From: an uncultured Planctomycetales bacterium
GTDB taxonomy: Bacteria > Omnitrophota > Gorgyraeia > Zapsychrales > JAHFFX01
NCBI GenBank assembly: GCA_964464475.1
Contig: CAYXGG010000002.1
Span: 93,455 to 157,454 of the forward strand
Length of the DNA: 64,000 nucleotides
Direction of reading: 5' to 3'
The notes beneath the pieces were generated by a model. That model was not told the origin of the DNA. It worked only from the letters and a program-made list of their open reading frames with translations, and searched no databases. Numbering within the stretch: position 1 is the stretch's first letter; each line of letters begins with the position of its first letter. Positions 14,882 to 58,814 of this stretch are shown here, one piece after another. Made by a program: the position numbers and the translations under genes.

Positions 14882-14891
14882 GAATCAACCC

Positions 14892-28264: not shown

Positions 28265-28295
28265 TAAGGACTAAACTTATTCCTCTGGTCACTAT

Positions 28296-29054: not shown

Positions 29055-29118
29055 CGGTTAGCAAATCATTTCGTTTTGAATTTCAGAATTATTTAGAATT
29101 TCTTATCTTCATTTTCTT

Positions 29119-33078: not shown

Positions 33079-33099
33079 TGGTTCTCCTGATTGATCACA

Positions 33100-33146
33100 A
33101 AATTCTAAGGACTAAACTCTAAAAAACACAAAATTTAGTCCTTAAG
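33100..33146 (-). terminator. hairpin spanning the stop codon of the SIS-isomerase gene, followed by a U tract and a ribosome-binding site (candidate internal terminator/attenuator)
   Basis: Inverted repeat of about 12 bp, CTAAGGACTAAA (33105-33116) and TTTAGTCCTTAAG (33133-33145), with a 16-nt loop. On the minus strand it is followed by AAUUUUGUG, then AGGAGA and the AUG at 33078. Confidence 0.35.
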
Positions 33147-42241: not shown

Positions 42242-42242
42242 A

Positions 42243-43832: not shown

Positions 43833-45195
43833 GATTTTTTTGTTTGAACTCAAAAGTTAACACGGCCAGCGACCCCCAACGAGTAGCGCGATCTCCCTGC
43901 CAACGCAAAATCGCGTCCAGGCAACGAGTGAAAAAATTCTCATGGCGTTCACGATGCAAATAGCTGGTCTTCCCACTTTTAAAATACTGAATCATCATCT
44001 GCAGGATCTGCTGAAAAAAAGCGGGAATGAGAAAGAATTCTTCCCGTGACAACTCACCCCAGCCGTGTCTGGTCAACACGCCTGACCACTGATTCAGGTC
44101 AATGGGCGCATACGGACCCCAAAAAGAATAAATTCCAGTTTTACGGATATCGTTACCAAAAAGCATTTTTAACAGCGCGTGAAAACAATTTAAGAACAGA
44201 TTATTTTTGCGCGCGATGATATATAGCTTGGTCCCGGGAAGAAGCTGGCCCGTTAACTTACGTAATAAATCCTCAAAAACAACTACCGAGATTCTTTCCG
44301 CTTTCATGACCAGGGTGACGCTTTGCACCGATGATAAAGGAACCTCTGCGGCCGCAAGATCCGAAAGCGTCAACATTCTTAATTTAAGGGCCGGCTCCAC
44401 GCGCTGTGCCGCTCTTTCCACGTATTGACCCGTGGCCGCGTTTAAGTTCAGCGAATACACTTCCTGACCTGCGAAATACTTCAAATAACTTCCGTCATAA
44501 GAAAACACATCCAGCACGGGACCCGACACCTTTTTTAACACCGCTTCAACTTTAGCCAACTCCGCCGCCGCATTAAGATCCATTTCCTTACCTAGGGTCG
44601 TTTTGCGACAGAAATATTGTTGGTAATCGGCCAACTGCTCCAAACTCCAATCCGCCGGAGAATAGGATTTACGGTATTCGCGTGTTGCATTAAATCCGTT
44701 AAAAGAAACCATCTCTTCAACGGGCCGACGAGGAATAACGGAAATATCGGCGTTGGTCACATCCGGGGAGTAGCCCAGTGCCACGAAAGCACAGATGACG
44801 TATTGTTGCGGAATGTTCAATAGCTTTTTGATGACCGTCGCGTTCCCAAAGCTATTCATGGCGGTTGATCCCAACCCCAATTCGCAACAGCGGTTGAGCA
44901 TATTCATGATCGCCATAGATCCAGCTTGGATCGCTTCCTTATAATTCCAGCCATCATACATAACGATGATAATCGCCGCGGCGCGGCGAATCAGCGTCGA
45001 AGAATAAGCCTGGGCAATGAGTTCGTCTTTGACTTTCGGATCATCAACCACCACAAAACGCCACAACTGCTGGTTGCAGGAAGTGGGTGCCGCAGCCCCC
45101 GCGCGTAGGATGTCATAGATCAATTCGCGCGAGACCGACTGATCGGAAAAATGACGAACGCTTTTACGTTTTAGTAATATATCCTGGAATTCCAT
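43825..45195 (-). CDS. nitroreductase-family domain fused to an uncharacterised ~300-aa C-terminal domain
   Basis: N-terminus MEFQDILLKRKSVRHFSDQ...CNQQLWRFVVV is the canonical NADH/flavin nitroreductase fold start. The remainder has no assignable motif. Confidence 0.65.
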   Translation of the reverse strand: MEFQDILLKRKSVRHFSDQSVSRELIYDILRAGAAAPTSCNQQLWRFVVVDDPKVKDELIAQAYSSTLIRRAAAIIIVMYDGWNYKEAIQAGSMAIMNMLNRCCELGLGSTAMNSFGNATVIKKLLNIPQQYVICAFVALGYSPDVTNADISVIPRRPVEEMVSFNGFNATREYRKSYSPADWSLEQLADYQQYFCRKTTLGKEMDLNAAAELAKVEAVLKKVSGPVLDVFSYDGSYLKYFAGQEVYSLNLNAATGQYVERAAQRVEPALKLRMLTLSDLAAAEVPLSSVQSVTLVMKAERISVVVFEDLLRKLTGQLLPGTKLYIIARKNNLFLNCFHALLKMLFGNDIRKTGIYSFWGPYAPIDLNQWSGVLTRHGWGELSREEFFLIPAFFQQILQMMIQYFKSGKTSYLHRERHENFFTRCLDAILRWQGDRATRWGSLAVLTFEFKQKNHA

Positions 45196-45199
45196 CGGT

Positions 45200-46177
45200 T
45201 TAGGAGACCGGATTAAAACCGATTTTCTCGGTGACCTGAGTGTCACCGGCTTGAGATTCAGAATTGCGGACCAGCAGTTCGGCAATCAACCCGAGTGAAA
45301 TAAACTGCACGCCCATGATGGTCATCATGATGCCAAAAGACAACAAGGGTCTGGTTCCAATGTGATGCCCACTGAACCAAACCAACGTCAAATAAAATAG
45401 TATCCCGCCACCGATCGCCGCGAACGCGAGCCCCACCCCACCAAATAAATGACCGGGCCGACGCAAATACCGCGTGATGGCGATGACCGTCAATAAATCC
45501 AAAAATCCGCGAATATAGCGTTCAAGACCATACTTGGATTTACCGTGTTTGCGCGGGAGATGGTTGACAACCATTTCCCCGACTCGAAAGCCCTCATGAT
45601 GCGCCAGAATAGGGATATAGCGATGCAATTCTCCATAAACTTTAATCGCTTTCAGAACGTCTACACGGTAGACCTTAAACCCGCAATTAAAATCATGTAG
45701 GGTCATCCCCGACATGGCGCGGGCTACGGCGTTAAAAAGACGTGACGGCAAGGTTTTGGATAGCGGATCATGACGTTTGAACTTCCAGCCAGAAACCAGG
45801 TCAAATCCTTCGTTCAATTTGTTCAGAAAATTAGGAATTTCCTGGGGGTCATCCTGAAGATCCGCGTCCATCGTAAAAATCACTTCCCCCCTCACCAAAT
45901 GAAATCCCGTGGACAACGCTTGGGCCTTGCCAAAATTCTTGCGAAACTTCACCCCCCGGACTATCCCCGGGAAATGTTTCACCAACGCCGCGATATTTTC
46001 CCACGAACCGTCGCGACTCCCATCATCGACAAAAATAACTTCAAAAAATCCCACCTGATTTTCTTTAACCACGTTGGAAATCTTCTCAAAAAGCGGCACA
46101 ATCGTCGCTTCTTCATTGTAAACGGGAATGACAAAACTGATAAATCGGGAAGAAAAAGCCAAATCGCTAGTTTTCAT
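45200..46177 (-). CDS. GT2 polyprenyl-phosphate sugar transferase (ArnC/DPM1/GtrB-like) with C-terminal TM helices
   Basis: FVIPVYNEEATI...FEVIFVDDGSRDGS...MDADLQDDP, plus two C-terminal TM segments. Confidence 0.8.
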   Translation of the reverse strand: MKTSDLAFSSRFISFVIPVYNEEATIVPLFEKISNVVKENQVGFFEVIFVDDGSRDGSWENIAALVKHFPGIVRGVKFRKNFGKAQALSTGFHLVRGEVIFTMDADLQDDPQEIPNFLNKLNEGFDLVSGWKFKRHDPLSKTLPSRLFNAVARAMSGMTLHDFNCGFKVYRVDVLKAIKVYGELHRYIPILAHHEGFRVGEMVVNHLPRKHGKSKYGLERYIRGFLDLLTVIAITRYLRRPGHLFGGVGLAFAAIGGGILFYLTLVWFSGHHIGTRPLLSFGIMMTIMGVQFISLGLIAELLVRNSESQAGDTQVTEKIGFNPVS

Positions 46178-46181
46178 AAAA

Positions 46182-47354
46182 TTAATTTGGGTGTGTGATT
46201 AATTTAATAACCTTATCTTGTTGCTCCACCGTCAACCCGACGGATGACGGCAAACTCACGGCCTCGGCGTATAACCGAGGCGCGACCTCAATCGCGTGCG
46301 CATAGCAGGAAGAAAATATTTTTAACCCGGAAAGCGGATGCCACACCGGACGGGCTTCGATCATGTTCGCTTTCAAACGCTGGATCAACTGACGGCTGGT
46401 TTCTTTATATTTCTTAGCGTTCACGCGAATTGTGTACAGCCAAGCATTCCACCGCGCTTGAGGCGAATCGGAAGGAATCAGAATCCCTTCTCGAGCATGG
46501 AAAGCTCGGTCATAACGCTGGGCCAAACGTCGCTTTGCCAAAACGAACTCCTCGAGCAATTCCATTTGAGCAACACCCACCGCCGCCTGTAAATTTGTCA
46601 ACCGGTAATTATAACCAACTTCCTCATGAATATATTCTACAGGATCGTTCTTGGCCTGGGTGGTTAAATACCGCACCCGGTCTGCCAATTTTGCGGATGA
46701 CGTGACCACCATGCCTCCTCCGCCGGTCGTGATAATCTTGTTGCCATTAAAACTAAAAATACCGCAGTCGCCAAACGTTCCGGTGTGTTGCTGCGCATAC
46801 TTAGAGCCCAGACTTTCGCTGGCATCCTCGATAACTTTCAAACGATAGCGCCGCGCTAATTTCAATAAGGGCGCCATCTCAACCGGGTGCCCCATGACGT
46901 GGACCGGCAATAGCGCCGAGACGTTTCGCTTAGTAACGGTATTAATGAGTTTACCGGCCTGCACGCGACATTTTTTCTTAAGAAAATCTTCCAGCTTCGC
47001 CATATCCAACTGCCAATAGCGATCTTCAACATCAATAAATACCGGCCAGGCCCCGCAATAACGAACCGCATTAGCGGGCGCCACAAAACTGATCGCAGGA
47101 ACAATCACTTCATCCTCAGGTTTGACTCCACACACCAGAAGCGCGACATGGAGCGCCGAAGTACCGTTAACACAAGCAACCGCGTGCTTCGCGTCGACAT
47201 ATTGCGCCACTTTACTTTCAAATAAATTTACGAATTTTCCGACCGATGAAACCCACCGAGTGTCCAGACATTCCTTCACGTAGGCCCATTCATTACCGCG
47301 GACCTCAGGTTCACATAGACCAATGGATTTATTCTTGTTCGAAAAATAAATCAT
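46182..47354 (-). CDS. DegT/DnrJ/EryC1/StrS-family PLP-dependent sugar aminotransferase (ArnB/LegC/PseC-like)
   Basis: Family hallmarks: NGTSALHVAL, FSFNGNKIITTGGGGMVVT with the Lys of the PLP site, 390 aa. Confidence 0.85.
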   Translation of the reverse strand: MIYFSNKNKSIGLCEPEVRGNEWAYVKECLDTRWVSSVGKFVNLFESKVAQYVDAKHAVACVNGTSALHVALLVCGVKPEDEVIVPAISFVAPANAVRYCGAWPVFIDVEDRYWQLDMAKLEDFLKKKCRVQAGKLINTVTKRNVSALLPVHVMGHPVEMAPLLKLARRYRLKVIEDASESLGSKYAQQHTGTFGDCGIFSFNGNKIITTGGGGMVVTSSAKLADRVRYLTTQAKNDPVEYIHEEVGYNYRLTNLQAAVGVAQMELLEEFVLAKRRLAQRYDRAFHAREGILIPSDSPQARWNAWLYTIRVNAKKYKETSRQLIQRLKANMIEARPVWHPLSGLKIFSSCYAHAIEVAPRLYAEAVSLPSSVGLTVEQQDKVIKLITHPN

Positions 47355-48430
47355 ATCTTCTTAACGTTCGGTATTTTTAAATCTTTCTGAACCTTTTGAT
47401 AATCCGCCGGTTTCCCGACATCAATCCAATACTCCTGAATGGGAAAACAAATCACGCGACGCGTAGCGTCAATCAGGCAACGTACCAGATCCGGCATATC
47501 AAATCTCTTACCGCGGGGAATATATTCAAACGCTTGCGGTTCCAGCAGATAAACCCCCGCATTGACCATAAACGCCTGTTGGGGTTTTTCCACCAAATCT
47601 TTAATCAAAATATCATCGGACTCGACCACGCCGTAAGGAATTTCCAAATCATATTTGCGCACGCCCACTGTCATCATCGCCGAGTGACTTTGATGAAAAT
47701 CCAACATCGTACGAAAATCCAATTGAGTCAAAACATCACCGTTAATAATCAGCACCGGCCCCGTCGGCTTTTCCATCAGGCTAAGCGCCCCGGCGGTTCC
47801 CAACGGTTCACTTTCATTAATATACCCGATGTCAACGCCGAACTTATTACCATCGCCAAAATGATTGACGATAACATCGGCCTTATAATTGGTGCTGATA
47901 TTGACCTTACGAATTCCGGAATTTTTTAAATGCTCAATGGTGTGCTCCATGAGCGGACGATCATTGATCGGGAGCATAGGTTTAGGCACTTCTTGCGTCA
48001 ACGGCATCAATCGCTGCCCTTTCCCCCCGGCCATGACCACGGCTGTTAACGGCAGCGGATGGTGGTCATCCGGAATCAATTCTGATAGCAGCGCTAACTC
48101 CCGCACCCGCCTTTGATCGTCCACCAAAGGAATCTGGCGCAGGACTTTTTCTTTCATTAAACGTAATAATTCTTCTGGCGCTGTCCCTACCGAAGCCACG
48201 GTGGGCGGCGGATGATGCAGCGACTTTAAACTGAGAACCTTGCTGACCCGAGTCCCTAAAGATACTTTATTTAATACCGCCCGACGAATATCTCCATCGG
48301 TAATGGTTCCCACCAGACGCTTTTTATCATCCACCACTAGCGCAATTCCCACCCCACCCGTTTGTAACGTCAGAATGGTTTTCTTGAGGGTTGTGTTAAG
48401 ACCGATTATTATTTTCTTAATGTTCTTCAT
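47351..48430 (-). CDS. CBS-pair domain fused to sugar-phosphate nucleotidyltransferase (PtmE-like)
   Basis: N-terminal tandem CBS domains, then AVVMAGGKGQRLMPLTQEVPKPMLPI, the NTP_transferase G-loop. Confidence 0.8.
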   Translation of the reverse strand: MKNIKKIIIGLNTTLKKTILTLQTGGVGIALVVDDKKRLVGTITDGDIRRAVLNKVSLGTRVSKVLSLKSLHHPPPTVASVGTAPEELLRLMKEKVLRQIPLVDDQRRVRELALLSELIPDDHHPLPLTAVVMAGGKGQRLMPLTQEVPKPMLPINDRPLMEHTIEHLKNSGIRKVNISTNYKADVIVNHFGDGNKFGVDIGYINESEPLGTAGALSLMEKPTGPVLIINGDVLTQLDFRTMLDFHQSHSAMMTVGVRKYDLEIPYGVVESDDILIKDLVEKPQQAFMVNAGVYLLEPQAFEYIPRGKRFDMPDLVRCLIDATRRVICFPIQEYWIDVGKPADYQKVQKDLKIPNVKKI

Positions 48431-48440
48431 GCTCGATTCA

Positions 48441-49670
48441 CTAGGCCGTTGCCGCGGTCTCCTGGGTCAGAGACTGCACTTTATGCTTTAACCGCCATTC
48501 TCCATTATGTCGTTCCCACAAATGCGGTCCCATTTCCCGATAAAAATTAATAACCTGCCAGAACTCCTCGTCCGTGATTCCTAAATATTCCAGAAATTCT
48601 TTATAGTATTTTTGCGGAAATTCACCGTCATAGCGATGCACCAACGCGACCCCTTCATCGCGAGTCAAATGACCATCGCGAATTTCATGCGCGGCGTCCG
48701 AAGTGGCGCGCGCGATGCCAAACTTAATGTACGCCAGATAAAAATGAAAACCATCCGTCTTATCATCCAGACTTGCGTACTTAGAGTACGTCCCTTCTGA
48801 ACGGCCGTCATAATTGGCCTGAAAACCGGTGTGATCGACGGCGTAATAGTAATTTTCCTGAGGAACCCATTTTTTGTAAAAAGAAAACCAATGCATGGCG
48901 GGGTTTAAATCCTGCAGATCCTTAGGGCTAGGCGGACGATACAGCTCAAAGTTATTATCCTTCAACTCTTCCGGTTTAAAATAGCCGCATTTAAGACCGT
49001 GCTCCAAGATTTCGTCAATACCTGACCCTTTAAAATAAAAATCTTTCCAATCGGCGATGGGTTCCGCGGGCTTATCCCAGTTCTTCATCGATCCGCCATA
49101 TTCGATCTCACCGCTTTCTCCATAAAAAATCAGCGGAATTTTAAACTTACAGGCGATATGAAATGCATAAGCCTTCTGGCCATACGCGAAAGGTTCCCAC
49201 GCATCCCCCAACAATTCAAACGCCAAGCGCGCGAGTTTGCGATGATAAATGCCGTTAGGAAAACACAACAAATTATCAAACCCATGATCCTTAAACGCCA
49301 GATAATTCGCCCAACCGACTTCCGTATACATAAAGGGCGCCCACGTAATCGTCAAAGGATGCATGCCGTAGCGATATTTCAACTGATGCGCGACATAAGC
49401 GCTGTCCTTCCCGCCGCTACCGGGCACAACGCAATCATAACTGCCATCTTTCGAACGGTATTTATCCAATAATTCAACCAGCATGGCCTCGCGCTTGGTC
49501 CAATCAATGACGTTGTGTTTCATATGGGCATACTGACAGGCACTGCAGACACCGTGCTCATCAAAGGTAATCCGCGGACGCTGATTTGAGACGACGCATT
49601 TACGGCAATACTTGACCTCCTTCGGACGATTAGCTTGCTGACGATCTAGAGTTTTATTGGGAAACAACAT
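48441..49670 (-). CDS. N-acetyl sugar amidotransferase (WbpG/LfnA/PseA-type PP-loop ATPase)
   Basis: N-terminal Cys4 ribbon CRKCVVSNQRPRITFDEHGVCSACQ, then the PP-loop SGGKDS (VVPGSGGKDSAY). Confidence 0.8.
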   Translation of the reverse strand: MLFPNKTLDRQQANRPKEVKYCRKCVVSNQRPRITFDEHGVCSACQYAHMKHNVIDWTKREAMLVELLDKYRSKDGSYDCVVPGSGGKDSAYVAHQLKYRYGMHPLTITWAPFMYTEVGWANYLAFKDHGFDNLLCFPNGIYHRKLARLAFELLGDAWEPFAYGQKAYAFHIACKFKIPLIFYGESGEIEYGGSMKNWDKPAEPIADWKDFYFKGSGIDEILEHGLKCGYFKPEELKDNNFELYRPPSPKDLQDLNPAMHWFSFYKKWVPQENYYYAVDHTGFQANYDGRSEGTYSKYASLDDKTDGFHFYLAYIKFGIARATSDAAHEIRDGHLTRDEGVALVHRYDGEFPQKYYKEFLEYLGITDEEFWQVINFYREMGPHLWERHNGEWRLKHKVQSLTQETAATA

Positions 49671-49680
49671 AATGAACCTC

Positions 49681-50325
49681 CTAAACTGAATGGATAAAAT
49701 TTTTCAAAATGGTCATGCCCACATCCGCGCTCACTTCCGGATGAAACTGACATCCCGTTAAATTCTCTTTTTTCACCACCGAACAAAAGCGATTGATACC
49801 GTAATCCGTCTCGGCCACAATATGACTTCTCTCCTGGGGCTGGACCATAAAGGAATGCACGAAATAGACACAGGATTCCACAGGCACATCGCGTAAAACG
49901 GACTCCTTCCAAATAGCAGCATTCTCTGCAAGTCGTAAACGATTCCAACCCACGTGCGGAATTTTATGAACCGTACCCCCATTAGCATTCTGCAAGCGGC
50001 GCACATGCCCGGGGATCAAATCCAATCCCTCATGCAAGCCAAACTCTTCGCTATCCGACAATAATAACTGCATTCCCAAACATATGCCCAAAAGAGGCTT
50101 TCCCGTCAAAGCAAACTGCTGAATCGCTTCCACAAAATGTCGCGCTTTTAGATTCACCATGCCGTCGCCAAACGCCCCCACGCCCGGTAAAATGACCCGA
50201 TCAGCCTTAAGAACCGGCTCGGGCTCCTGAGTCACGACCGAACGACCGCCGCAATGAGTGACGACCTTTTCTAAATTAAATAAATTCCCCATCCCATAAT
50301 CGATGATGACGACTTCGGGTTTCAT
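49681..50325 (-). CDS. imidazole-glycerol-phosphate synthase HisH-like glutamine amidotransferase (polysaccharide-locus paralog)
   Basis: VVIIDYGMGNL, the catalytic Cys in GICLGMQLL, and HVGWN. Confidence 0.85.
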   Translation of the reverse strand: MKPEVVIIDYGMGNLFNLEKVVTHCGGRSVVTQEPEPVLKADRVILPGVGAFGDGMVNLKARHFVEAIQQFALTGKPLLGICLGMQLLLSDSEEFGLHEGLDLIPGHVRRLQNANGGTVHKIPHVGWNRLRLAENAAIWKESVLRDVPVESCVYFVHSFMVQPQERSHIVAETDYGINRFCSVVKKENLTGCQFHPEVSADVGMTILKNFIHSV

Positions 50326-51209
50326 AGCGCGATCTGGTGGGCAACGTTGCCCGTCATTCTACAGGCAATACCGGCGGATGACAATTGTTCCTTCACTTGA
50401 ATCACGCTGGAAGCCTGAATTCTGTTTTTCATAAAATCAATCGTGTCCCGACTACGCTTTAAAAACTCGACATTGCCTTCTGCTTGAAATTTATCCGCGT
50501 TCGCCAGTGCTGCTAAACGGTGATAATGAAAAATCGAAGCCGCGCACACCGCGTCCGGACGAGCTTCCAAAACCAATTCGCTAAAATGTTCCGGCTTTCC
50601 CGCGCCCCCACAGGCAATGACCGGCACGGGCACGCTTTGCGCTATTTTCTTAATCAACGCCAGATCAAATCCCCGTCCCGTACCTTCTTTGTCAACGCTA
50701 GTGATCAACAGTTCTCCTGCGCCTAAATCCACTGCTTCTCGAGCCCAATCCCAAACATCCTTCCCACTCTTTTCTCTGGAATTATCCGTCATGGCTTCGT
50801 ACCGACCAGGCTCGCGCATTTTTGCCTGAATAGAAATAACGATGCACTGCGAACCAAAGACCCGGGCCGCTTCTTTAATAAATCCCGGGTTACGAATGGC
50901 CGCCGTGTTAATGGCGACTTTATCCGCCCCAGCGCGCAATAAATGCCGGATATCATCGATCGACCGAATCCCCCCACCTGCTGTCAGCGGAATAAAGTTG
51001 TCTGCGGCAGCGCGTCTCACAATATCCAATAAATTCTGTCGACCATAGAGGCTGGCCACGCTATCGATATAAATTAATTCATCAGCGCCGTCCTGATAAT
51101 ATTTGGAAGCAAAATCTTCCGGCTTACCTAGGACGCGGAGGCCTTCAAAATGCACGCCCTTGACCAAATTGGGCCCCTTTATATCTAATCGCACAATGAC
51201 GCGGATCAT
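50322..51209 (-). CDS. imidazole-glycerol-phosphate synthase HisF-like cyclase subunit (polysaccharide-locus paralog)
   Basis: MIRVIVRLDIKG...DELIYIDS...GGGIRS give the HisF TIM-barrel motifs. Confidence 0.85.
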   Translation of the reverse strand: MIRVIVRLDIKGPNLVKGVHFEGLRVLGKPEDFASKYYQDGADELIYIDSVASLYGRQNLLDIVRRAAADNFIPLTAGGGIRSIDDIRHLLRAGADKVAINTAAIRNPGFIKEAARVFGSQCIVISIQAKMREPGRYEAMTDNSREKSGKDVWDWAREAVDLGAGELLITSVDKEGTGRGFDLALIKKIAQSVPVPVIACGGAGKPEHFSELVLEARPDAVCAASIFHYHRLAALANADKFQAEGNVEFLKRSRDTIDFMKNRIQASSVIQVKEQLSSAGIACRMTGNVAHQIAL

Positions 51210-51318
51210 AAAATAGTTCTCGTAGAAATTCCTAGATTCTCAGCAAGTATCATCATTATTTAAGTTGCTTTGAATAAAGAACCTTTCGTACTTCGGTAAC
51301 CTAGTCAACATTAACCGT

Positions 51319-51996
51319 TTAGTTATGCGCTGATTCTTCATCCACTTTTACCGCCGGAACCCCCACCGCCGTGACGTGGCCGGCCAAGTGCTTTACCACC
51401 ACCGCTCCCGCTCCGACCAGCGTTTTTTCCCCAATGGTAATCCCTTGAATGACCGTGGCTCCGGTTCCAATATGCGATCCCGCGCCCACAGTGACATTCC
51501 CGGATAGCGTCACTCCCGGCGCGATATGCGTGTGCGCGCCAATCACGCAATCATGATCAATGGTCGCGCGCGTATTAATAATCACGTTTTCACCAATCTG
51601 AGCCCCGGGATTGATGACGGCCCCGGCCATGACCTGCGCGCCCATCGCTAATTTTGCCGATCGCGAAATGATGGCCTGCGGATGAATGACCGACAAAAAT
51701 TCAAAACCACGCTCTACGTACGTGTCAAAGATCTGCTGACGCTGTTGAGGTAATCGAACCGATCCGATCCCATTAACTAAAATTACTTTCCGGGAAGAAT
51801 ACTTCTGTAAAGAATCATCCGTTCCCAAATATTTCAACCCAAGGTCTTCATTAGGTTTTAAATCGGTGTATCCGAGAATTTCACATTCTGGCGTTAGGTC
51901 TAAAATATCTTTTAATACCCGCGCGTGCCCACCACCTCCCAAGAGGATGACTGAGCGCGCGACCGCTGGCGATTTCTGTTTAGCCAATTTTTTCAT
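51319..51996 (-). CDS. PglD/NeuD-family hexapeptide-repeat sugar N-/O-acetyltransferase
   Basis: ILLGGGGHARVLKDIL N-terminal Rossmann-like region. C-terminal left-handed beta-helix hexapeptide repeats (IGAHTHIAPGVTLSGNVTVGAGSHIGTGATVIQG). Confidence 0.8.
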   Translation of the reverse strand: MKKLAKQKSPAVARSVILLGGGGHARVLKDILDLTPECEILGYTDLKPNEDLGLKYLGTDDSLQKYSSRKVILVNGIGSVRLPQQRQQIFDTYVERGFEFLSVIHPQAIISRSAKLAMGAQVMAGAVINPGAQIGENVIINTRATIDHDCVIGAHTHIAPGVTLSGNVTVGAGSHIGTGATVIQGITIGEKTLVGAGAVVVKHLAGHVTAVGVPAVKVDEESAHN

Positions 51997-53137
51997 AGAA
52001 TTTTTTTGCCAACAATTGTTTTAAGTCCACGTTTGCTAGCTTTTGAACAATGCGTCGCGCGGCGTGTCCATCCCCATAAGGATTAGTCATCGCACGCAAA
52101 GATTGCTTAAATCGAGCGGATAGCGCCTGCTTAATGCCCCGTTCAATAGCTACGGCGGTCGGCAACACATCAATCACGTTGCGTCCCCGCAGTCGACCGG
52201 CCTGACGATTACCTACATTGACCACCGGCAACTTAAAACTCGCCGCCTCGATGATTCCGCTCGATGAATTTCCCACCATCGCCGCGGCCTGAGCGAGCAG
52301 ACTAACATACCCACGCTGACCGAAACTGGCCACAAAAGTCGCGTTGGAATTCAATTTGACAAAGCGAAGGAGATGTTTTTTTATTTGAATCCCCGCCGGG
52401 TCGGCATTAGGCGCCGTAAAAACCAGCGAACATTCCCGAAAACGAGACAGCGCGGCAAGTAAATTCCGGATATAACCATCAGTTTTGGATAACTCTAACG
52501 TCACGGGATGAAACGTAACGACCACTAAAGGTCGGTCCGTGTTAAATCCCCATTGCCGACCTAGTTCATCTCGGCTCATCCGCGGTAATAACCGTAAATT
52601 ATCCAAACCCGGCGCGCCGCTAACCGAAACGCGCCAAGGCTCCTCGCCCATTAAATAAAGTCGTCGAGCGAATTCTGGGGTCGCGGGAAAATGCAAATGA
52701 CTTAATTTAGTCAACGAATGTCGAAACAATTCATCAATCGCTCCATAAGTCGTTTCTCCCCCATGTAAATGCGCCAAAGGAATATTAAACGGCACCGCCG
52801 CCAGCGCCGCCGCGTGCATTTCGTAGCGATCCCCGAGTACCAGTACAATATCCGGCCGTGTCTTCTTAAAAACCTGCGCGAAACCACGCGTCACTTCCCC
52901 CATCGTCCCGGCTATCCCCGCCGCCGAATCATCAGCCAGCGACACCTTGACTTGAGCACGAATCGGAAAGCCATCCCGCTTAATAAATTTAATGGTCTGT
53001 CCATGCGCAGCGGACAAATGCGAACCGGTGACATACAGCTGTAACGTTAAGTCCGAATGACGCATGATTTCAGCGAGGACCGGAAAATAAATCCCATAAT
53101 CCGCGCGGCTCGTTGTGATGACACCGATGGTTCTCAC
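51980..53137 (-). CDS. neuC: UDP-N-acetylglucosamine 2-epimerase (hydrolysing), NeuC/LegG-like
   Basis: MRTIGVITTSRADYGIYFPV...DIVLVLGDRYEMHAAALAA...HLHGGE gives the NeuC-family pattern. Confidence 0.85.
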   Translation of the reverse strand: MRTIGVITTSRADYGIYFPVLAEIMRHSDLTLQLYVTGSHLSAAHGQTIKFIKRDGFPIRAQVKVSLADDSAAGIAGTMGEVTRGFAQVFKKTRPDIVLVLGDRYEMHAAALAAVPFNIPLAHLHGGETTYGAIDELFRHSLTKLSHLHFPATPEFARRLYLMGEEPWRVSVSGAPGLDNLRLLPRMSRDELGRQWGFNTDRPLVVVTFHPVTLELSKTDGYIRNLLAALSRFRECSLVFTAPNADPAGIQIKKHLLRFVKLNSNATFVASFGQRGYVSLLAQAAAMVGNSSSGIIEAASFKLPVVNVGNRQAGRLRGRNVIDVLPTAVAIERGIKQALSARFKQSLRAMTNPYGDGHAARRIVQKLANVDLKQLLAKKFYEKIG

Positions 53138-54186
53138 GTAAACATCTCCAAAGATAATAATTTGTCTTTACCAATGTTGACCTTGGCGGTTTTCCCTAAT
53201 AAAGAAGAGCGCATCACCGGCGGTAGCCCGGTTCCGGGACGCTTCACCGCGATCATCGCCTCAGTCACCACCGTTCCGGCTTTAATGTCCACGGCCGCCA
53301 CCAAACTTTTACGTACCAATGCCGCAGTATGAATCTCCGTTTCCGTCGGCTTTCGTTCTCCAACGCCCAGCGCGACCTGCACATTACGAATCCCCCGGAC
53401 CAACTCTTTTAATTGTTTGGGATCCAATGAAATCTTGTGATCTGGTCCTTCTTCATCGGTGTTCAAGGTAAAATGTTTTTCAATCACGCAAGCCCCCAGC
53501 GCCACCGCCGCCAACGGCACTTCCAACCCCAAGGTATGATCAGAAAATCCAACCGGCACATGAAATTTCTGGGCAAGCGTGCGCATAAACGACAAGTGCA
53601 CGTCTTCGGGACTTGTCGGATAATCACTCACACAGTGAAGCAAGACCAAGTCCTTATTTCCCGTGGCGCGAATTGATTTGACCGCGAGTTCAATCTCATC
53701 CATCAAGGCCATGCCGGTTGACACAATCATGGGCTTTCCCTTTTTCGCAACATGAATTAAAAAGGGAATGTTGGTGATTTCGCCGGAAGGAATTTTAAAA
53801 ACTTTCAATCCCAGTTTATTCAAGAAATCCGCGCTTTTGATATCAAACGGCGTTGATAAAAAATTAATCTTCTTATCTAAACAATATTCATAAAGTTCAA
53901 ATTGATCGGCCGCCGACAGTTCCAGTTTCTTGAGCATCGACAACTGCGATCCACCCGATTTGGTGTTTTTCTTTTGATACGCCGCTTTGGGCGCCTCATC
54001 GGTAACCAGTTCTTCAGCGTGAAAACTCTGAAATTTGATCGCGTCCGCGCCAGCTTCCGCGGCCACATCGACCATCTTCTTGGCAATTTTTAACTCGCCG
54101 TTGTGGTTAACCCCCGCCTCGGCAATGACAAAACAATGTTCAGGATCAATGACTTTCTGCCAGACCGGTTTTACCATGCCGTCCAA
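53134..54186 (-). CDS. neuB: N-acetylneuraminate-type (nonulosonate) synthase, NeuB/LegI-like
   Basis: FVIAEAGVNHNG...KFQ...FKIPSGEITN...IVSTGM and a C-terminal SAF/antifreeze-like domain. Confidence 0.9.
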   Translation of the reverse strand: MDGMVKPVWQKVIDPEHCFVIAEAGVNHNGELKIAKKMVDVAAEAGADAIKFQSFHAEELVTDEAPKAAYQKKNTKSGGSQLSMLKKLELSAADQFELYEYCLDKKINFLSTPFDIKSADFLNKLGLKVFKIPSGEITNIPFLIHVAKKGKPMIVSTGMALMDEIELAVKSIRATGNKDLVLLHCVSDYPTSPEDVHLSFMRTLAQKFHVPVGFSDHTLGLEVPLAAVALGACVIEKHFTLNTDEEGPDHKISLDPKQLKELVRGIRNVQVALGVGERKPTETEIHTAALVRKSLVAAVDIKAGTVVTEAMIAVKRPGTGLPPVMRSSLLGKTAKVNIGKDKLLSLEMFT

Positions 54187-54974
54187 CCTCCATCCACGAC
54201 GAGATTATGCCCCGTCACGTACGCGGACAAATCGCTCGCCAAATAGACAATCGCGCCTTTTAAATCTTCTTCCGTGGCCATCCGGCGTAACGGGGTACGG
54301 GCGACGTATTTCTTCAAAAAACTTTTAGGCTGATTACGAAAAACGCCACCCACGGAAATCATGTTGGCGCGCACCTGCGGAGCCAATGCCGTCGATAACC
54401 AACGCGTGAATTGCAATAGTCCACCTTTGCTGGCCGCGTAGGCGGCGGGATTGCCCAAGCCAGTTCCCGCGTATAAACTTAAATCCGGTCCCACCATTCC
54501 GTAAATTGAACCGATGTTAATGATCGCGCCGTGACCGGATTTCTTAAGCAAAGGCTCACACGCTTGGATCAAAGAAAACGTCGCCGTCAGATTAACTTCC
54601 AGTGCCTGGCGCCAGGTATGTACATCCTGTTTGGCAAACGGCACGGCCCACCCTTTAAGTTGGGACGTACCCACCAAGGCAGCGCAATTAATGAGCACAT
54701 CCAATCGACCCAACATTTTGCTGACGATATTAGGAACGAGTTGGCTCGCGCCATCCTGAGCCAAATCCAGGACTAAAGGGAGTACTTTGACTTTAAATCG
54801 CTGTTGCAACGCACGTGCGGTTTTCTCGCAACCGGACCGGTTTAAATCTAACAATACTAAATTCGCACCCTGTTCGGCCAGTGCTTGGGCCAACACACAC
54901 CCGATGTGCCCTGCCCCGCCGGTGATCAGCGCCACGCGATTTCTTAAATTGCTTAATTCCTTAACGGTCTTCAT
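54171..54974 (-). CDS. SDR-family oxidoreductase
   Basis: VALITGGAGHIG and YAASKGGL. Confidence 0.8.
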   Translation of the reverse strand: MKTVKELSNLRNRVALITGGAGHIGCVLAQALAEQGANLVLLDLNRSGCEKTARALQQRFKVKVLPLVLDLAQDGASQLVPNIVSKMLGRLDVLINCAALVGTSQLKGWAVPFAKQDVHTWRQALEVNLTATFSLIQACEPLLKKSGHGAIINIGSIYGMVGPDLSLYAGTGLGNPAAYAASKGGLLQFTRWLSTALAPQVRANMISVGGVFRNQPKSFLKKYVARTPLRRMATEEDLKGAIVYLASDLSAYVTGHNLVVDGGWTAW

Positions 54975-55672
54975 GTTGTCCCTCGCTTCATCAAAAATTC
55001 CGCCAGTTTAAAATCAAACAACGTGTCAATATCCAAGGCCCGCTCAACCGGAACTTCAACCGCCTTCACCCGACCCGACAAAATAGAAGTTGTTGTCATG
55101 ACATAATCTCGACGCGCGGCATAGGCGACGGTGGTCACATCGTAGACTTTGGGCGCGGCCTGACGTTGAAAAAATTTCTTTTGAGAAATCACCACGGCCG
55201 CGTTCGCGGCTTTATCAACGGTCACCATATTAAAATACGGACTGCGCTGCGCGGGAGTCACCGTAATCACGGCGTCCGCATCAGTTGCCAATAGCTTATC
55301 CAAACAGCGCTGAATATCTTCCGGTTTCCTCAAAGGCGACGTCGTAGGAATCGTTACGATGACATCGACTCGCCGCCCCAACTGGGCTTCTACCGATCGG
55401 ATCGCGTGTTGCCAGGCTAGCAACTCCGGCGCCCGGTCCGTGGCTAACTCAGCCGGGCGCCGAAAAGGAACCTCAGCGCCAAACTGTTTTGCGACCCGCG
55501 CGATCTGAGCATCATCCGTAGACACAATCAAGCGATTGAGCCCTTTGACGCGCCGCGCCTGCTCAATCGCATAAGCAATGAGCGGTTGGCCGTTCAGCAG
55601 CTTGATATTTTTGCGAGGAACGCCTTTAGATCCCCCGCGGGCAAAAATAGCACCGAGCACAAATGGTTTCAT
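54971..55672 (-). CDS. neuA: acylneuraminate (nonulosonate) cytidylyltransferase, NeuA/LegF-like
   Basis: AIFARGGSKGVPRKNIKLLNGQPLIAYAI gives the CMP-NeuAc synthetase N-terminal signature. Confidence 0.85.
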   Translation of the reverse strand: MKPFVLGAIFARGGSKGVPRKNIKLLNGQPLIAYAIEQARRVKGLNRLIVSTDDAQIARVAKQFGAEVPFRRPAELATDRAPELLAWQHAIRSVEAQLGRRVDVIVTIPTTSPLRKPEDIQRCLDKLLATDADAVITVTPAQRSPYFNMVTVDKAANAAVVISQKKFFQRQAAPKVYDVTTVAYAARRDYVMTTTSILSGRVKAVEVPVERALDIDTLFDFKLAEFLMKRGTT

Positions 55673-55766
55673 AGAATAACTTTCTGCAGGACGAACGACG
55701 CTAGACGAGGGACGACTATTCTTCTGGTCCTGACACCCTTCTCTCTCATTCCTCGCAACATTCGGA

Positions 55767-56768
55767 TCATACCTTCACCGTTTTCCCCAGCTTCGCCGAT
55801 TCCTTAGCCGCGAGAGCAAGCTTTAGCACGCGCTGTCCGTCTTCTCCGGTGACCAACGGCTTTTGTCGCTTCTTGACACACGTAAAAAAATGCCGCAGTT
55901 CGTCAATAAACATCTGGTTATAATCGAGCGAAGGGACTGGCAATAGATTAATCCACTCTTTCTTGCCTGGATCAAAAAATCCAGTGTACGGCTGCGGACT
56001 CGAGTCCCAAACCAGCGTGCCTTCTGAGCCGATGACTCGACACGAACGATTCTGCGCCCGATCCACCATATCCAAATGAATATTACCTACGGCGTTATTT
56101 TTAAACTTAACGGTGATTTCCGCGAGATCTTCGACCTGGATCGGAAAATCACTCACTTTATGGACCACCGCGCTGACCTCTTTGATTTCACCGGCCAACC
56201 AACGGATATAATCTAACTCATGACTTAATTCAAAAACCACACCCCCGCCGAGATTCTTGCGCGCGCTGACATTGGTACGATAATCCGTTCCCGGTCGCCA
56301 TTCGGGAAGATAGCGACCGACAGTAGCCCGGATAGCCAGCACGCGACCAATACGCCCTTGGTCAATCAGACCTTTAAATAATTTTAAAGGTTCAAAAAAT
56401 CTTAGAACATATCCGACCATGAGGACCGTCCCCAACTTCCGGCATTCTTTAATGACCGGATCAATCTCCTCGACTTTCATCGCCATCGGTTTCTCAATAA
56501 ATAAATGACAACCCAGCTGCGCGAACGTTTTGGCCGTGGGCATATGCAGATTAGCCGGATTGCAAACGAAGACCGCGTCAGGACGCCAATTAATAGCGTC
56601 GATCGTACGCACAAAAACTTCAGACACTAAGGATTGATATTCTCCAATCTCCGTTTCTTTCGACTGTTGGCGCAAAACCGACACGGAAAATGACGGATCA
56701 ATGGCTTGCAAATTCTTTAAATGCCGTTTGCCGATGCTGCCAAACCCCACAATCAATACTTTCATCAC
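55767..56768 (-). CDS. Gfo/Idh/MocA-family oxidoreductase
   Basis: MKVLIVGFGSIGKRHL and EKP. Confidence 0.8.
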   Translation of the reverse strand: MMKVLIVGFGSIGKRHLKNLQAIDPSFSVSVLRQQSKETEIGEYQSLVSEVFVRTIDAINWRPDAVFVCNPANLHMPTAKTFAQLGCHLFIEKPMAMKVEEIDPVIKECRKLGTVLMVGYVLRFFEPLKLFKGLIDQGRIGRVLAIRATVGRYLPEWRPGTDYRTNVSARKNLGGGVVFELSHELDYIRWLAGEIKEVSAVVHKVSDFPIQVEDLAEITVKFKNNAVGNIHLDMVDRAQNRSCRVIGSEGTLVWDSSPQPYTGFFDPGKKEWINLLPVPSLDYNQMFIDELRHFFTCVKKRQKPLVTGEDGQRVLKLALAAKESAKLGKTVKV

Positions 56769-57736
56769 GCCCTCGCTACGGCTTGCATCTCGTCCGTCAA
56801 ACGCTCCGCGAGCTGCATCGTTTTTAAAGAACCTTCCAAATCCTGATCCGGCCAGCGTGTTTTGCCCGAAAGAACCATATCGCGCAAGGCCTCCATTTGC
56901 CGGTAAAAACCGGCTTTATACGTGACATCCTGTGGTTCCGGAACCAGCTCATGAGTTTGATAATCGCTGTCTACCCACCAGCCTTTTTCTAACGGTTTAA
57001 ACTCAACCGTTACGCCTTGACCATAAAGCACAACCCGCCATCCACCCGGTGAATACCAATGCGAAATGTACTGTCCGATGCCGCCCCGCTCTAATTCCAT
57101 GATCGCCCCAAACTGATCTCCTCGTTTTTCTAACAGCGAATGGCAAATAGTTTTAAGTTGCGATGGCTCTCCGCCAAAGAAACGCAATAAATCAATGGTG
57201 TGAATGCTGTTAGCGTACAGCCATTCATCCAACGCCAAAGGAGAGAACCGATTCATCGCTCGCACCTGCGGCATGCGTTCATGGCCTTCCACCAAGACCC
57301 CTAAAAGCCGACCGTGACGCTTCACCACCTCTAAGCCCTGATGAAAAATCGAATAATACCGACGATTAAACCCGACGAGTGTTGGTAATTTCTTAGCTTG
57401 GGCCAACTCGACCAGGGCTTTGTTTTCAGCAACGGAAATACCGGCCGGTTTCTCCACAAATAGCGGCAGCCCGAAGGCCAACGCTGCTTTCGTCACCGCA
57501 AACATCTGATCAATGGAAACCATCACCATTAAGGCGTCAGGCTTCGCGACACGCACCATCGTTTCGAGATTGTCTTCGCATACCGGAATACCATACTCTC
57601 CGGCCAACTCCTTAGCCTGTGGCAAAGAACGCGACATCAACCCCACCGCAGTCAAACCTTCAACGCCCTTAATCGCGTCCAAATGCAAGCGCGCGATACT
57701 TCCCGCGCCAATCAATCCAAGCCGTACTGTTTTCAT
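56765..57736 (-). CDS. Gfo/Idh/MocA-family oxidoreductase
   Basis: VRLGLIGAGSIARLHL and EKP. Confidence 0.8.
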   Translation of the reverse strand: MKTVRLGLIGAGSIARLHLDAIKGVEGLTAVGLMSRSLPQAKELAGEYGIPVCEDNLETMVRVAKPDALMVMVSIDQMFAVTKAALAFGLPLFVEKPAGISVAENKALVELAQAKKLPTLVGFNRRYYSIFHQGLEVVKRHGRLLGVLVEGHERMPQVRAMNRFSPLALDEWLYANSIHTIDLLRFFGGEPSQLKTICHSLLEKRGDQFGAIMELERGGIGQYISHWYSPGGWRVVLYGQGVTVEFKPLEKGWWVDSDYQTHELVPEPQDVTYKAGFYRQMEALRDMVLSGKTRWPDQDLEGSLKTMQLAERLTDEMQAVARA

Positions 57737-57817
57737 TGATCTCCCCGCCGAGGATGACGAAACAACGCAATGCTACCGTCTGCTTTCATCCCGCGGCTTT
57801 CCTCATTGTCTCAATTA

Positions 57818-58804: not shown

Positions 58805-58814
58805 GTTGACCCCT

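Follow-up and report, generated by a model that had tools for sequence, protein, structure and literature searches.

Which sugar is assembled by a gene cluster in which an N-acetyl sugar amidotransferase and paralogs of HisH and HisF sit among nonulosonate biosynthesis genes? Such a cluster lies in the window, the 64-kb stretch of DNA analyzed here, which derives from an uncultured Omnitrophota bacterium. Acetamidino chemistry is already known, and the lineage is what is new. The original prediction placed ten ORFs of this kind at positions 46182-55672; the module, as delimited here, contains the following features.

46182-47354, minus strand: LegC-type PLP aminotransferase (TIGR04181, 482 bits; cutoff, 420)
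47351-48430, minus strand: CBS-domain sugar-1-phosphate nucleotidyltransferase, PtmE-like (CBS and NTP_transferase domains)
48441-49670, minus strand: WbuX/NASAT N-acetyl sugar amidotransferase, a PP-loop ATP pyrophosphatase (TIGR03573, 341.3 bits; cutoff, 203.2)
49681-50325, minus strand: HisH2-type class I glutaminase (TIGR01855, 204 bits; cutoff, 105)
50322-51209, minus strand: HisF2-type (beta/alpha)8 barrel, probable ammonia conduit (PF00977, 208 bits)
51319-51996, minus strand: NeuD/PglD-type N-acetyltransferase, LegH role (TIGR03570, 226.9 bits; cutoff, 160.8)
51980-53137, minus strand: hydrolyzing NDP-sugar 2-epimerase, LegG/NeuC (TIGR03568, 427.8 bits; cutoff, 236)
53134-54186, minus strand: nonulosonate synthase, NeuB/LegI (TIGR03569, 462.9 bits; cutoff, 399.65)
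54171-54974, minus strand: SDR, PtmA/ElaC-like trio member (adh_short_C2, 158.8 bits)
54971-55672, minus strand: CMP-nonulosonate synthetase, LegF/NeuA family (PF02348, 82 bits)
55767-56768, minus strand: Gfo/Idh/MocA oxidoreductase 1, PtmF/ElaA-like trio member (PF01408, PF02894, and PF22725)
56765-57736, minus strand: Gfo/Idh/MocA oxidoreductase 2 (PF01408, 65.6 bits)
57818-58876, minus strand: Gfo/Idh/MocA-like oxidoreductase 3 (PF01408, 25.6 bits)
58815-59612, minus strand: divergent formyltransferase-family protein, probable N-formyltransferase (PF00551, 25 bits)
59612-60661, minus strand: CE4 polysaccharide-deacetylase-family protein, probable de-N-acetylase (PF01522, 62.7 bits)
60612-61604, minus strand: LegB-type NAD-dependent nucleotide-GlcNAc 4,6-dehydratase (TIGR04180, 456.6 bits; E value, 3e-137; cutoff, 475)

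All ten ORFs at 46182-55672 were found where they had been placed, on the minus strand, and profile matches backed the families assigned to them earlier (aminotransferase, CBS-nucleotidyltransferase, amidotransferase triad, and NeuD-, NeuC-, NeuB- and NeuA-like proteins). Protein identity, motifs, and gene linkage could be read directly from the window, as could intactness: HMM matches spanned the profiles of the ten genes end to end, including those of the triad, whose decay into pseudogenes the original prediction had named as a point against itself. Neighboring genes among the ten overlapped by 4 to 17 nt or were separated by gaps of ≤10 nt, except for a 109-nt gap before the HisF-like gene. 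The module extends beyond 55672 to 61604, with LegB at its far end and five genes (three Gfo/Idh/MocA, the deacetylase, and the formyltransferase) between LegB and the CMP-synthetase. The original prediction made no mention of LegB, the SDR, the Gfo/Idh/MocA genes, or the deacetylase/formyltransferase pair. The setting is a Wzy/WbaP-type polysaccharide locus, and the module is an operon-like part of this Omnitrophota surface-glycan locus.

Curated cutoffs were passed by LegC, WbuX, NeuD, NeuC, and NeuB, while LegB fell slightly short of its own; equivalog cutoffs were missed by LegB, the CMP-synthetase, the SDR, and the HisF-like protein. LegB is of the short soluble SDR type and shares 71% identity with its copy in the related locus L004. 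The best PDB match of LegC was GDP-perosamine synthase (293 bits), and the best NCBIfam and PDB relatives of the PtmE-like protein were mannose-1-phosphate and heptose-1-phosphate guanylyltransferases, which suggests that this nucleotidyltransferase is probably a guanylyltransferase. PglD_N and hexapeptide repeats were identified in the NeuD/PglD-type protein (51319-51996). The epimerase best matched 5ZLR/5XVS, annotated [quoted passage not shown] (270 bits; human GNE reached 174 bits). The PDB matches of the synthase were without discrimination (SpsE, 203 bits; NmNeuB, 188 bits; PseI, 175 bits), and its TIGR03569 NeuB-type model also includes true Neu5Ac synthases. A database record (P0001; 347 amino acids) is 100% identical to the synthase but starts 3 codons later, at 54177.

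Because LegB, LegC, LegH, a LegG-like epimerase, and a PtmE-like guanylyltransferase surround the synthase, a legionaminic rather than a Neu5Ac product is favored. The module most likely makes a CMP-activated 5,7-diamino-3,5,7,9-tetradeoxy-nonulosonic acid of the legionaminic type, in which one N-acetyl group has been made acetamidino. The order of steps, drawn from knowledge of the families, would begin with a GDP-hexosamine from the PtmE-like enzyme, followed by C4/C6 dehydration of GDP-GlcNAc by LegB as the first committed step, C4 amination by LegC, and acetylation of the new amine by the NeuD/PglD enzyme. The LegG-type enzyme would then remove the nucleotide and epimerize C2, the NeuB-type synthase would condense the hexose with phosphoenolpyruvate, and the cytidylyltransferase would form the CMP-sugar. 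Usage of GDP likewise follows family knowledge: for both LegC and the PtmE-like protein, the nearest homologs with solved structures are enzymes that work on GDP-sugars or consume GTP. GlmU and phosphoglucosamine mutase, which are required for the GDP route, were absent from the 64-kb window. The stage of amidination and the nitrogen modified are also proposed by family resemblance. In Campylobacter the Am group arises at the CMP-sugar stage (PMC5378307; preprint 10.64898/2026.04.20.719630), and the "5-N" position given in the original prediction is an analogy that may apply here.

The configuration of the backbone at C8 bears on this assignment. The first Gfo/Idh/MocA gene, the CMP-synthetase gene, and the SDR gene (55767-56768, 54971-55672, and 54171-54974) match the family makeup of ElaA, ElaB, and ElaC (Gfo/Idh/MocA, CMP-transferase, and SDR), the 8-epimerase cassette of A. 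baumannii KL49 and V. vulnificus, whose genes are neighbors within a Leg cluster (PMC13656337). The trio may thus epimerize C8, and the sugar could be 8-epi-legionaminic acid or another stereoisomer formed by an ElaA-ElaB-ElaC-like CMP-Leg 8-epimerase, with the acetamidino step unchanged. The trio is kept beside the pathway in many related loci: Gfo1 adjoins the genes for the CMP-synthetase and SDR not only in the window but also in L001, L004, L008, L009, L015, L016, L018, L028, and L032, with SDR identities of 75% in L004 and 61% in L001 from Methanoregula. Two additional Gfo/Idh/MocA genes follow the trio; the second is kept in L004 (67%) and L032 (51%), and the third occupies the same position in L004 (63%) and L032 (45%). 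However, PtmF, LegF, and PtmA also occur together in Campylobacter and in the Leg cluster of Plesiomonas, organisms for which legionaminic acid is the reported sugar (PMC4481668), and the presence of the trio therefore does not predict an 8-epimer. The SDR scored 132 bits against the PtmA model (cutoff, 350), and its best PDB match was an unnamed dehydrogenase. An 8-epimeric backbone is thus a tentative reading, less probable than legionaminic acid itself.

The original prediction of an amidotransferase triad within a nonulosonate operon held, with WbuX well above the TIGR03573 cutoff and its closest solved relative being the L. pneumophila NASAT 8WEX (E value, 8e-107; 49% identity over 385 residues). 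The PP-loop and Zn tetracysteine motifs are present in WbuX, with SGGKDS (85-90) and Cys22/25/42/45 invariant. The catalytic triad of HisH is intact (PGVG oxyanion strand, Cys in GICLGMQ, and His/Glu in QFHPEVS), and its gene begins 4 nt before the end of that for HisF2. The three extra genes probably convert an N-acetyl into an acetamidino group, which carries a positive charge. The HisH-like glutaminase would free ammonia from glutamine, the ammonia would travel through the HisF-like barrel, whose own cyclase chemistry would have been lost, and WbuX would activate the acetamido carbonyl with ATP and add the ammonia, yielding acetamidine, AMP, and pyrophosphate. We infer the ATP use and the substrate of NASAT, since no in vitro NASAT assay is on record (PMC10607449). 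In P. aeruginosa, HisF2 coprecipitates with WbpG in co-IP, and delivery of ammonia by HisH2/HisF2 was proposed earlier (PMC11445079).

The same three-protein logic, in which an acetamidino sugar is formed by a PP-loop amidotransferase together with a glutaminase and a HisF-like barrel, is seen in WbuX-WbuY-WbuZ of E. coli O145, WbpG-HisH2-HisF2 of P. aeruginosa O5, and AglX-AglY-AglZ of Methanococcus maripaludis, but their substrates are of the FucNAc or ManNAc3NAcA type. The genetics of the characterized WbuX (E. coli O145) and WbpG (P. aeruginosa O5) point to FucNAc and ManNAc3NAcA rather than nonulosonates (PMC10607449). The locus also encodes other sugar pathways that may supply alternative N-acetyl substrates; at 17740-20460 of the window it contains additional genes of the NDP-sugar dehydratase, epimerase, and nucleotidyltransferase types. 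It could be argued that the triad amidinates one of these sugars (e.g., a 6-deoxy-hexosamine or hexosaminuronic acid) and is merely housed in the nonulosonate operon. This appears improbable, given that the triad is flanked by legH and ptmE/legC, with downstream-side gaps of ≤10 nt, and that WbuX relatives (55 to 79% identity) adjoin NeuB/LegG/LegF homologs in 15 of 17 loci of ≥10 kb, from unrelated lineages of both bacteria and archaea. The HisF-HisH-WbuX order recurs in at least 12 loci; those with these genes beside NulO genes include Methanoregula and Desulfobacula MAGs. The solved relative closest to WbuX, from L. pneumophila, also argues for a nonulosonate substrate. The O-antigen of L. 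pneumophila is a polymer of acetamidino legionaminic acid.

The Legionella LPS locus and the window share a PP-loop Zn-tetracysteine amidotransferase (PDB 8WEX), NeuA/NeuB/NeuC-type genes in a surface-glycan context, and the expected product class, acetamidino legionaminic acid. The Legionella route begins at UDP-diNAcBac, whereas the window carries GDP-route markers (the PtmE-like guanylyltransferase, a short LegB, and LegC). In addition, the zinc ribbon of LpNASAT has a 15-residue insert that the window WbuX lacks, and the host belongs to the Gammaproteobacteria rather than the Omnitrophota. The ptm/leg flagellin genes of Campylobacter jejuni/coli (LegB, C, H, G, I, F, PtmE, PtmA, PtmF, and PtmG) have the Leg enzymes and PtmE in common with the window, but the target there is flagellin and not a Wzy/WbaP-type polysaccharide. 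PtmG of Campylobacter is not known to have dedicated HisH/HisF partners, whereas the window amidotransferase is accompanied by both. PtmG is the WbuX-family amidotransferase that makes Leg5Am7Ac (PMC4481668; PMC5378307; preprint 10.64898/2026.04.20.719630).

The original prediction had left legionaminic and pseudaminic acid as alternatives, and the gene content retains the former and speaks against the latter. LegG and PtmE are present and PseG is not, the pattern by which Leg is told from Pse (PMC5378307). A pseudaminic acid or ordinary N-acetylneuraminic acid product could be read from the names given by NCBI to the matching NeuB and NeuC models (N-acetylneuraminate synthase and UDP-GlcNAc 2-epimerase) and from the CMP-synthetase, for which PseF ranked first among the NCBIfam models. 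However, PseF (149.6 bits; cutoff, 205.7), PseC (267 bits for LegC; cutoff, 423.5), PseI (302.9 bits for the synthase; cutoff, 340.25), and PseB (only 66 bits for LegB) models all scored below their cutoffs, PseH was not found, and the Pse route proceeds without a hydrolyzing 2-epimerase (PMC5378307), one of which is present in the module. For Neu5Ac, LegB, LegC, and the N-acetyltransferase would be needless, and the epimerase is far closer to the diNAcBac 2-epimerase than to GNE. Either product is very unlikely.

The HisF-like protein fell under three model cutoffs (HisF, 270.8 versus 294.55; WbuZ, 264.6 versus 299.7; and AglZ/HisF2, 196.6 versus 310). It keeps the ammonia-gate residues R5/E46/K99/E167 and the phosphate sites, but Gln replaces the cyclase catalytic Asp130, Arg is found at position 9, and 30 to 36 amino acids are inserted after beta-8. 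In a two-class split of 150 representatives, it was placed in the non-Asp class, of which R/V/N at positions 9, 53, and 144 is the signature. The HisF2 clade with this signature is invariably arranged as HisF-HisH-WbuX. Among 21 WbuX-linked HisF copies, position 130 was E, Q, A, or G and in none D, with gate and phosphate sites invariant. Glu occupies this position in 9 of the 21, a conservative change from which loss of the chemistry may not necessarily follow. L002 and 16 representatives carry HisF and HisH as a single fused protein. Because the WbuZ and AglZ/HisF2 cutoffs were missed, the protein is assigned on sequence grounds to a separate, nonulosonate-linked HisF2 branch. That HisH and HisF are a housekeeping imidazole glycerol phosphate synthase found here by chance, as the HisH match to TIGR01855 and hisF as best NCBIfam match of the barrel could suggest, is scarcely credible, given the missed HisF cutoff, the missing Asp130, the R/V/N signature, the recurrent gene order, and the lack of any His-family match beyond this pair among ∼60 window ORFs of ≥150 amino acids searched against Pfam and/or NCBIfam.

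The deacetylase and formyltransferase genes, both accessory, have a counterpart in Candidatus Kuenenia stuttgartiensis, in which both functions occur among legB/legC/legF/neuB/legG homologs and have been connected with CMP-nonulosonates that bear a free amine and an N-formyl group. In contrast to the window, no amidotransferase triad is reported in the Kuenenia cluster, and the window pair is an insertion absent from the closest relatives; the deacetylase gene is missing from L004 and L032. Deacetylase homologs lie directly upstream of a formyltransferase-like gene in L042-L044, and the pair is also found in other genomes away from nonulosonate genes. The formyltransferase-like protein belongs to a family of ∼264-amino-acid members that are 53 to 59% identical; its PDB matches were GART (4DS3) and "formyltransferase PseJ" (6CI2), with the alignment covering the catalytic N-x-H...D motif (NLH, SPFYRG, and LDSGP). 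Together, the two enzymes may swap an acetyl for a formyl group.

All ten ORFs of the proposed acetamidino-nonulosonate module were found at 46182-55672, and families could be assigned to each using Pfam and NCBIfam. Profiles were matched end to end across the ten, and thus no pseudogene is present among them; this includes the triad of WbuX amidotransferase, HisH-like glutaminase (HisH2) and HisF-like barrel (HisF2), for which decay had been raised as a possibility. The module continues past 55672 on its transcriptionally upstream side as far as LegB, ending at 61604. The interpretation offered in the original prediction was supported in its main part, while the SDR, Gfo, LegB and deacetylase/formyltransferase genes had been overlooked.

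Features of the nonulosonate module and its upstream continuation (window positions)
46182-55672, minus strand: ten ORFs, families assigned by Pfam and NCBIfam
within 46182-55672, minus strand: LegC aminotransferase (TIGR04181, 482 bits; cutoff, 420)
within 46182-55672, minus strand: CBS plus nucleotidyltransferase protein (Pfam/NCBIfam)
within 46182-55672, minus strand: WbuX N-acetyl sugar amidotransferase (TIGR03573, 341.3 bits; cutoff, 203.2)
within 46182-55672, minus strand: HisH-type glutaminase and HisF-type barrel (Pfam/NCBIfam)
within 46182-55672, minus strand: NeuD/PglD acetyltransferase, NeuC-type hydrolysing 2-epimerase and NeuB-type synthase (Pfam/NCBIfam)
54171-54974, minus strand: short-chain dehydrogenase (SDR; Pfam/NCBIfam)
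54971-55672, minus strand: CMP-sugar cytidylyltransferase (Pfam/NCBIfam)
55767-58876, minus strand: three Gfo/Idh/MocA-type oxidoreductases, Gfo1 at 55767-56768 (profile search)
58815-59612, minus strand: formyltransferase-like gene (profile search)
59612-60661, minus strand: CE4 deacetylase-family gene (profile search)
60612-61604, minus strand: LegB-type 4,6-dehydratase (TIGR04180, 456.6 bits; cutoff, 475)

Across the whole window, all assigned genes and all ORFs of at least 150 aa lie on the minus strand, except for three short antisense ORFs; GC content is 43 to 52% and GC skew is negative throughout. Within 46182-55672, neighboring genes overlap by 4 to 17 nt or are separated by gaps of at most 10 nt; only the HisF-like gene is preceded by a longer gap, of 109 nt. 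A promoter and terminator scan of 44500-64000 gave no signal above shuffled expectation, and operon boundaries could thus not be called. No RNA family was identified in an Rfam search of the window, and inspection by eye of the gaps before hisF2 and legF revealed nothing striking. A GDSL-family gene, a TIGR04440 glycosyltransferase and an ABC exporter lie upstream of LegB, and an ArnC-like GT2 lies downstream of the module. The region from ∼9000 to 64000 is a single surface-glycan locus, which also carries a WbaP-type initiating transferase, WecG and several Wzy_C proteins; the housekeeping genes pgk and tpi start at 8877. Database proteins that match the NeuB and PGK of the window at 100% identity both come from one NCBI contig of 164,287 bp, and every named relative of the PGK, at 67 to 72% identity, belongs to a Candidatus Omnitrophota MAG.

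The match of WbuX to its family profile covered positions 1 to 343 of 344. Members of the N-acetyl sugar amidotransferase (NASAT) family are defined by a PP-loop (SGGxDS) and a tetracysteine CxxC...CxxC zinc motif, and an in vitro assay of ATP-dependent acetamidine formation has been reported for none of them (PMC10607449). The window protein carries SGGKDS at residues 85 to 90, together with Cys22, Cys25, Cys42 and Cys45, which were invariant in the alignment. Its sole solved relative is 8WEX from Legionella pneumophila (E value, 8e-107; 49% identity over 385 residues). These features argue for membership in the NASAT family, and WbuX is predicted to form acetamidine. HisH2 scored 204 bits against TIGR01855 (cutoff, 105.4) and, when aligned to HisH structures, retained the Cys-His-Glu triad, with the Cys in GICLGMQ and the His and Glu in QFHPEVS.

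HisF2 fell below the cutoffs of all three relevant models: HisF TIGR00735 (270.8 bits; cutoff, 294.55), WbuZ TIGR03572 (264.6 bits; cutoff, 299.7) and AglZ/HisF2 NF038364 (196.6 bits; cutoff, 310). Over the full length of the barrel it could be aligned with structures of true HisF, and it kept Asp11, the ammonia-gate residues R5, E46, K99 and E167, and the phosphate-binding glycines. The second catalytic aspartate, Asp130 in HisF numbering, is replaced by Gln. Asp was found at this position in none of 21 WbuX-linked HisF copies (Glu in nine, Gln in seven, Ala in four and Gly in one), and the gate and phosphate sites were invariant in all 21. The best 150 representatives from a library of 1.8 billion proteins could be split into two classes. 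Asp130 was kept in 68, together with Cys9, Ser/Thr53 and Gly144, and fusions in this class were mostly HisH-HisF. The remaining 82, lacking Asp130, carried Arg/Lys9, Val53 and Asn144, and 16 of 16 fusions were HisF-HisH; the window protein falls in this class. Since Asp was never present in the 21 linked copies and the 150 representatives divided in this manner, loss of Asp130 is a property of the clade and not an accident. A housekeeping histidine pair, against which the original prediction had advised a check, can be rejected for the HisF copy because the HisF cutoff was missed, Asp130 was replaced by Gln and the protein belongs to the non-Asp130 class. An insertion of 30 to 36 residues after beta-8 is present in the window HisF2 and common to most WbuX-linked copies. 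An AlphaFold single-sequence model of HisF2 had a mean pLDDT of 48.9, too poor for use.

HisF2 probably works like WbuZ and AglZ but sits on a separate branch, outside both curated models. HisF2 and HisH2 often form one protein in the order HisF-HisH, as at 8361-9941 of the Desulfobacula locus and in the representative proteins P0121, P0123 and P0125, among others; the Asp130-keeping class shows the reverse order, HisH-HisF. Residues R/K9, V53, non-Asp130 and N144, coupled with the HisF-HisH fusion order, provide a practical rule for separating HisF2 from true HisF. Genes of the HisF2 class at present carry the name imidazole glycerol phosphate synthase and can lead to overprediction of histidine biosynthesis in MAGs. 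For genome annotation, this residue signature is the most useful by-product of the analysis.

In a genome scan, the closest relatives of WbuX were found in Methanoregula (63% identity) and Desulfobacula (61% identity) MAGs, where HisF, HisH and WbuX adjoin NeuB, NeuC and CMP-synthetase homologues; HisF and HisH form one fused ORF in Desulfobacula. A metagenome scan identified 36 further WbuX loci (55 to 79% identity). Nonulosonate genes lay beside WbuX in 15 of the 17 loci that extend over 10 kb or more, and HisF-HisH-WbuX were contiguous, in constant order, in the window and at least 12 related loci. Locus L032 (WbuX, 79% identity) matches the window nearly gene for gene. L004, the closest locus by NeuB (67% identity), reads LegB-Gfo3-Gfo2-Gfo1-LegF-SDR-LegI-LegG-LegH-HisF-HisH before the contig ends. 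This linkage argues that the substrate of the triad is the nonulosonate or a precursor, rather than another sugar of the locus. No match to the triad was found at the DNA level in E. coli genomes. In L004, two small ORFs of 91 and 86 aa separate legF from the SDR gene (8675-9207), and hisH2 is followed by an AbiEii/NTP_transf_5 gene together with its 58-aa partner (14601-15340); these look like toxin-antitoxin insertions. In environmental metagenomes, a cassette combining legionaminic acid genes with the amidotransferase occurs across both bacteria and methanogenic archaea.

The synthase passed TIGR03569 and failed the PseI model. Its scores against solved structures (SpsE, 203 bits; NmNeuB, 188 bits; PseI, 175 bits) and the names of its close homologues, a mixture of NeuB and LegI, do not discriminate between types, and the assignment to legionaminic acid therefore rests on pathway content. 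LegC exceeded the cutoff of its model, and its closest solved relative is GDP-perosamine synthase. LegB, of the short, soluble type, scored slightly below its TIGR04180 cutoff and reached 66 bits against the PseB model; its PDB relatives were generic SDRs and uninformative. The 2-epimerase (TIGR03568, 427.8 bits) had as best solved relative the GDP/UDP-diNAcBac 2-epimerase 5ZLR/5XVS (270 bits), and fits the predicted role of LegG, the hydrolysing enzyme for diNAcBac. The PtmE-like protein has a CBS plus NTP_transferase architecture, and its closest families are guanylyltransferases. Putative markers of a GDP route are thus present in the CBS-nucleotidyltransferase, the short soluble LegB and a LegC near GDP-perosamine synthase. 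Plain Neu5Ac is an unlikely product: its route has no use for LegB, LegC or the N-acetyltransferase, and the epimerase is nearer the diNAcBac enzyme than human GNE (174 bits). Pseudaminic acid, the other product named in the original prediction, is excluded as far as sequence allows, given that PseB (66 versus 408 bits), PseC (267 versus 423.5), PseI (303 versus 340) and PseF (150 versus 206) all scored under cutoff, PseG and PseH were not found in profile searches of the module, and a hydrolysing 2-epimerase, foreign to the pseudaminic acid route, is present (criteria of PMC5378307).

From the functions of these families, HisH2 would hydrolyse glutamine, the released ammonia would pass across the HisF2 barrel, and WbuX would adenylate the acetamido oxygen before addition of ammonia yields the amidine. 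By analogy, the window triad would work like WbuXYZ, WbpG/HisH2/HisF2 and AglXYZ. In Pseudomonas aeruginosa, HisF2 co-precipitates with WbpG, and supply of ammonia to WbpG by HisH2/HisF2 was proposed earlier (PMC11445079). Amidination most likely follows CMP activation, because the acetamidino forms of Campylobacter have been detected as CMP-sugars (PMC5378307; preprint 10.64898/2026.04.20.719630).

The neighboring Gfo1 (55767-56768), CMP-transferase (LegF; 54971-55672) and SDR (54171-54974) genes match, by family make-up, the composition of ElaA-ElaB-ElaC, a CMP-legionaminic acid 8-epimerase described in 2026 (PMC13656337). PtmF-LegF-PtmA has the same composition and occurs in organisms reported as legionaminic acid makers (PMC4481668); the trio is compatible with either configuration at C8. 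The formyltransferase-like protein retains an Asn-His-Asp motif, and its weak PDB matches include the nonulosonate formyltransferase PseJ. Homologues of ∼264 aa were 53 to 59% identical, and in three other genomes the deacetylase gene precedes the homologue with a 4-nt overlap.

Positions of the CE4 deacetylase and formyltransferase pair
58815-60661: window
9105-10795: locus L042
9096-10795: locus L043
9069-10792: locus L044

Glycan loci of Omnitrophota, of Gimesia and of a genome of 6.7 Mb share this conserved pair, in which the stop codon of one gene overlaps the start codon of the next. Nonulosonate genes lie near it in one of the three other genomes, at the Gimesia locus, and neither L004 nor L032 carries the pair. 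The pair looks like a portable cassette that may swap N-acetyl for N-formyl. A similar arrangement in Kuenenia has been linked to free-amine and N-formyl nonulosonates (preprint 10.64898/2026.04.20.719630). The GDSL-family acylhydrolase gene (61583-62398), located between the TIGR04440 glycosyltransferase and legB and absent from L004, may encode an O-acetyl-handling enzyme for the nonulosonate.

A more speculative reading, which we consider improbable, gives HisF2 a role beyond that of a passive pipe: it could take up the nucleotide-sugar, or WbuX loaded with it, and gate the glutaminase as PRFAR does in histidine biosynthesis. On this reading the cluster, aided also by the trio and by the deacetylase/formyltransferase pair, could make an undescribed legionaminic acid derivative, acetamidino and formyl bearing and possibly C8-epimerised, on the Omnitrophota cell surface. 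The features behind an active HisF2 are the loss of Asp130, retention of both phosphate sites, gain of Arg/Lys9 and the beta-8 insertion, which should be placed on the catalytic face.

The predicted product class, an acetamidino legionaminic acid, matches those of Legionella and Campylobacter. Compared with known systems, the window joins a predicted GDP-type legionaminic acid route with a dedicated HisH2/HisF2 pair, and the host phylum, Omnitrophota, differs. An acetamidino group leaves an otherwise acidic nonulosonate with no net charge at physiological pH (preprint 10.64898/2026.04.20.719630). Such charge neutralisation may alter recognition by phage, predator or host. Omnitrophota is an uncultured phylum, for which the module provides a concrete, testable surface-sugar prediction; current understanding is not overturned by any of these findings.

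Elsewhere in the locus, the minus-strand genes at 24923-35823 appear to form a second CMP-sugar pathway, of an unusual kind.

Features of the region at 24923-35823
26532-27305, minus strand: KdsB-subfamily cytidylyltransferase (293 bits; cutoff, 255)
29898-31625, minus strand: HAD domain fused to a NanM-like sugar O-methyltransferase
31565-32362, minus strand: HpaI/HpcH-type pyruvate aldolase
32362-33078, minus strand: fructose-6-phosphate-aldolase-like protein
33142-33771, minus strand: GmhA-like SIS isomerase
within 24923-35823, minus strand: two SDRs, a D-2-hydroxyacid dehydrogenase and a further Gfo/Idh/MocA gene

No KdsA- or NeuB-type synthase is present in this region, which might yield an ulosonic acid that is non-canonical and possibly O-methylated. 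The stretch at 36719-43853 is occupied by four large ORFs (634, 691, 543 and 536 aa); three are soluble and one has ∼9 hydrophobic segments. No Pfam family was identified in the four, and they proved mutually unrelated when compared as possible paralogous transferases. The 634-aa ORF gave weak matches to TIGR04326 (43.6 bits) and the Tannerella BFO_1060 glycosyltransferase family (20.6 bits), and is a candidate nonulosonate transferase. The gene between the large ORFs and the GT2 (43825-45285) encodes a protein of 486 aa whose N-terminal domain is a nitroreductase, which is odd in a glycan locus. Two adjacent Wzy_C (O-antigen ligase/polymerase-like) membrane proteins at 9894-12672 and a pair of multi-pass membrane paralogues (35% identical) at 20381-23438 suggest that the locus handles more than one polymer or acceptor.
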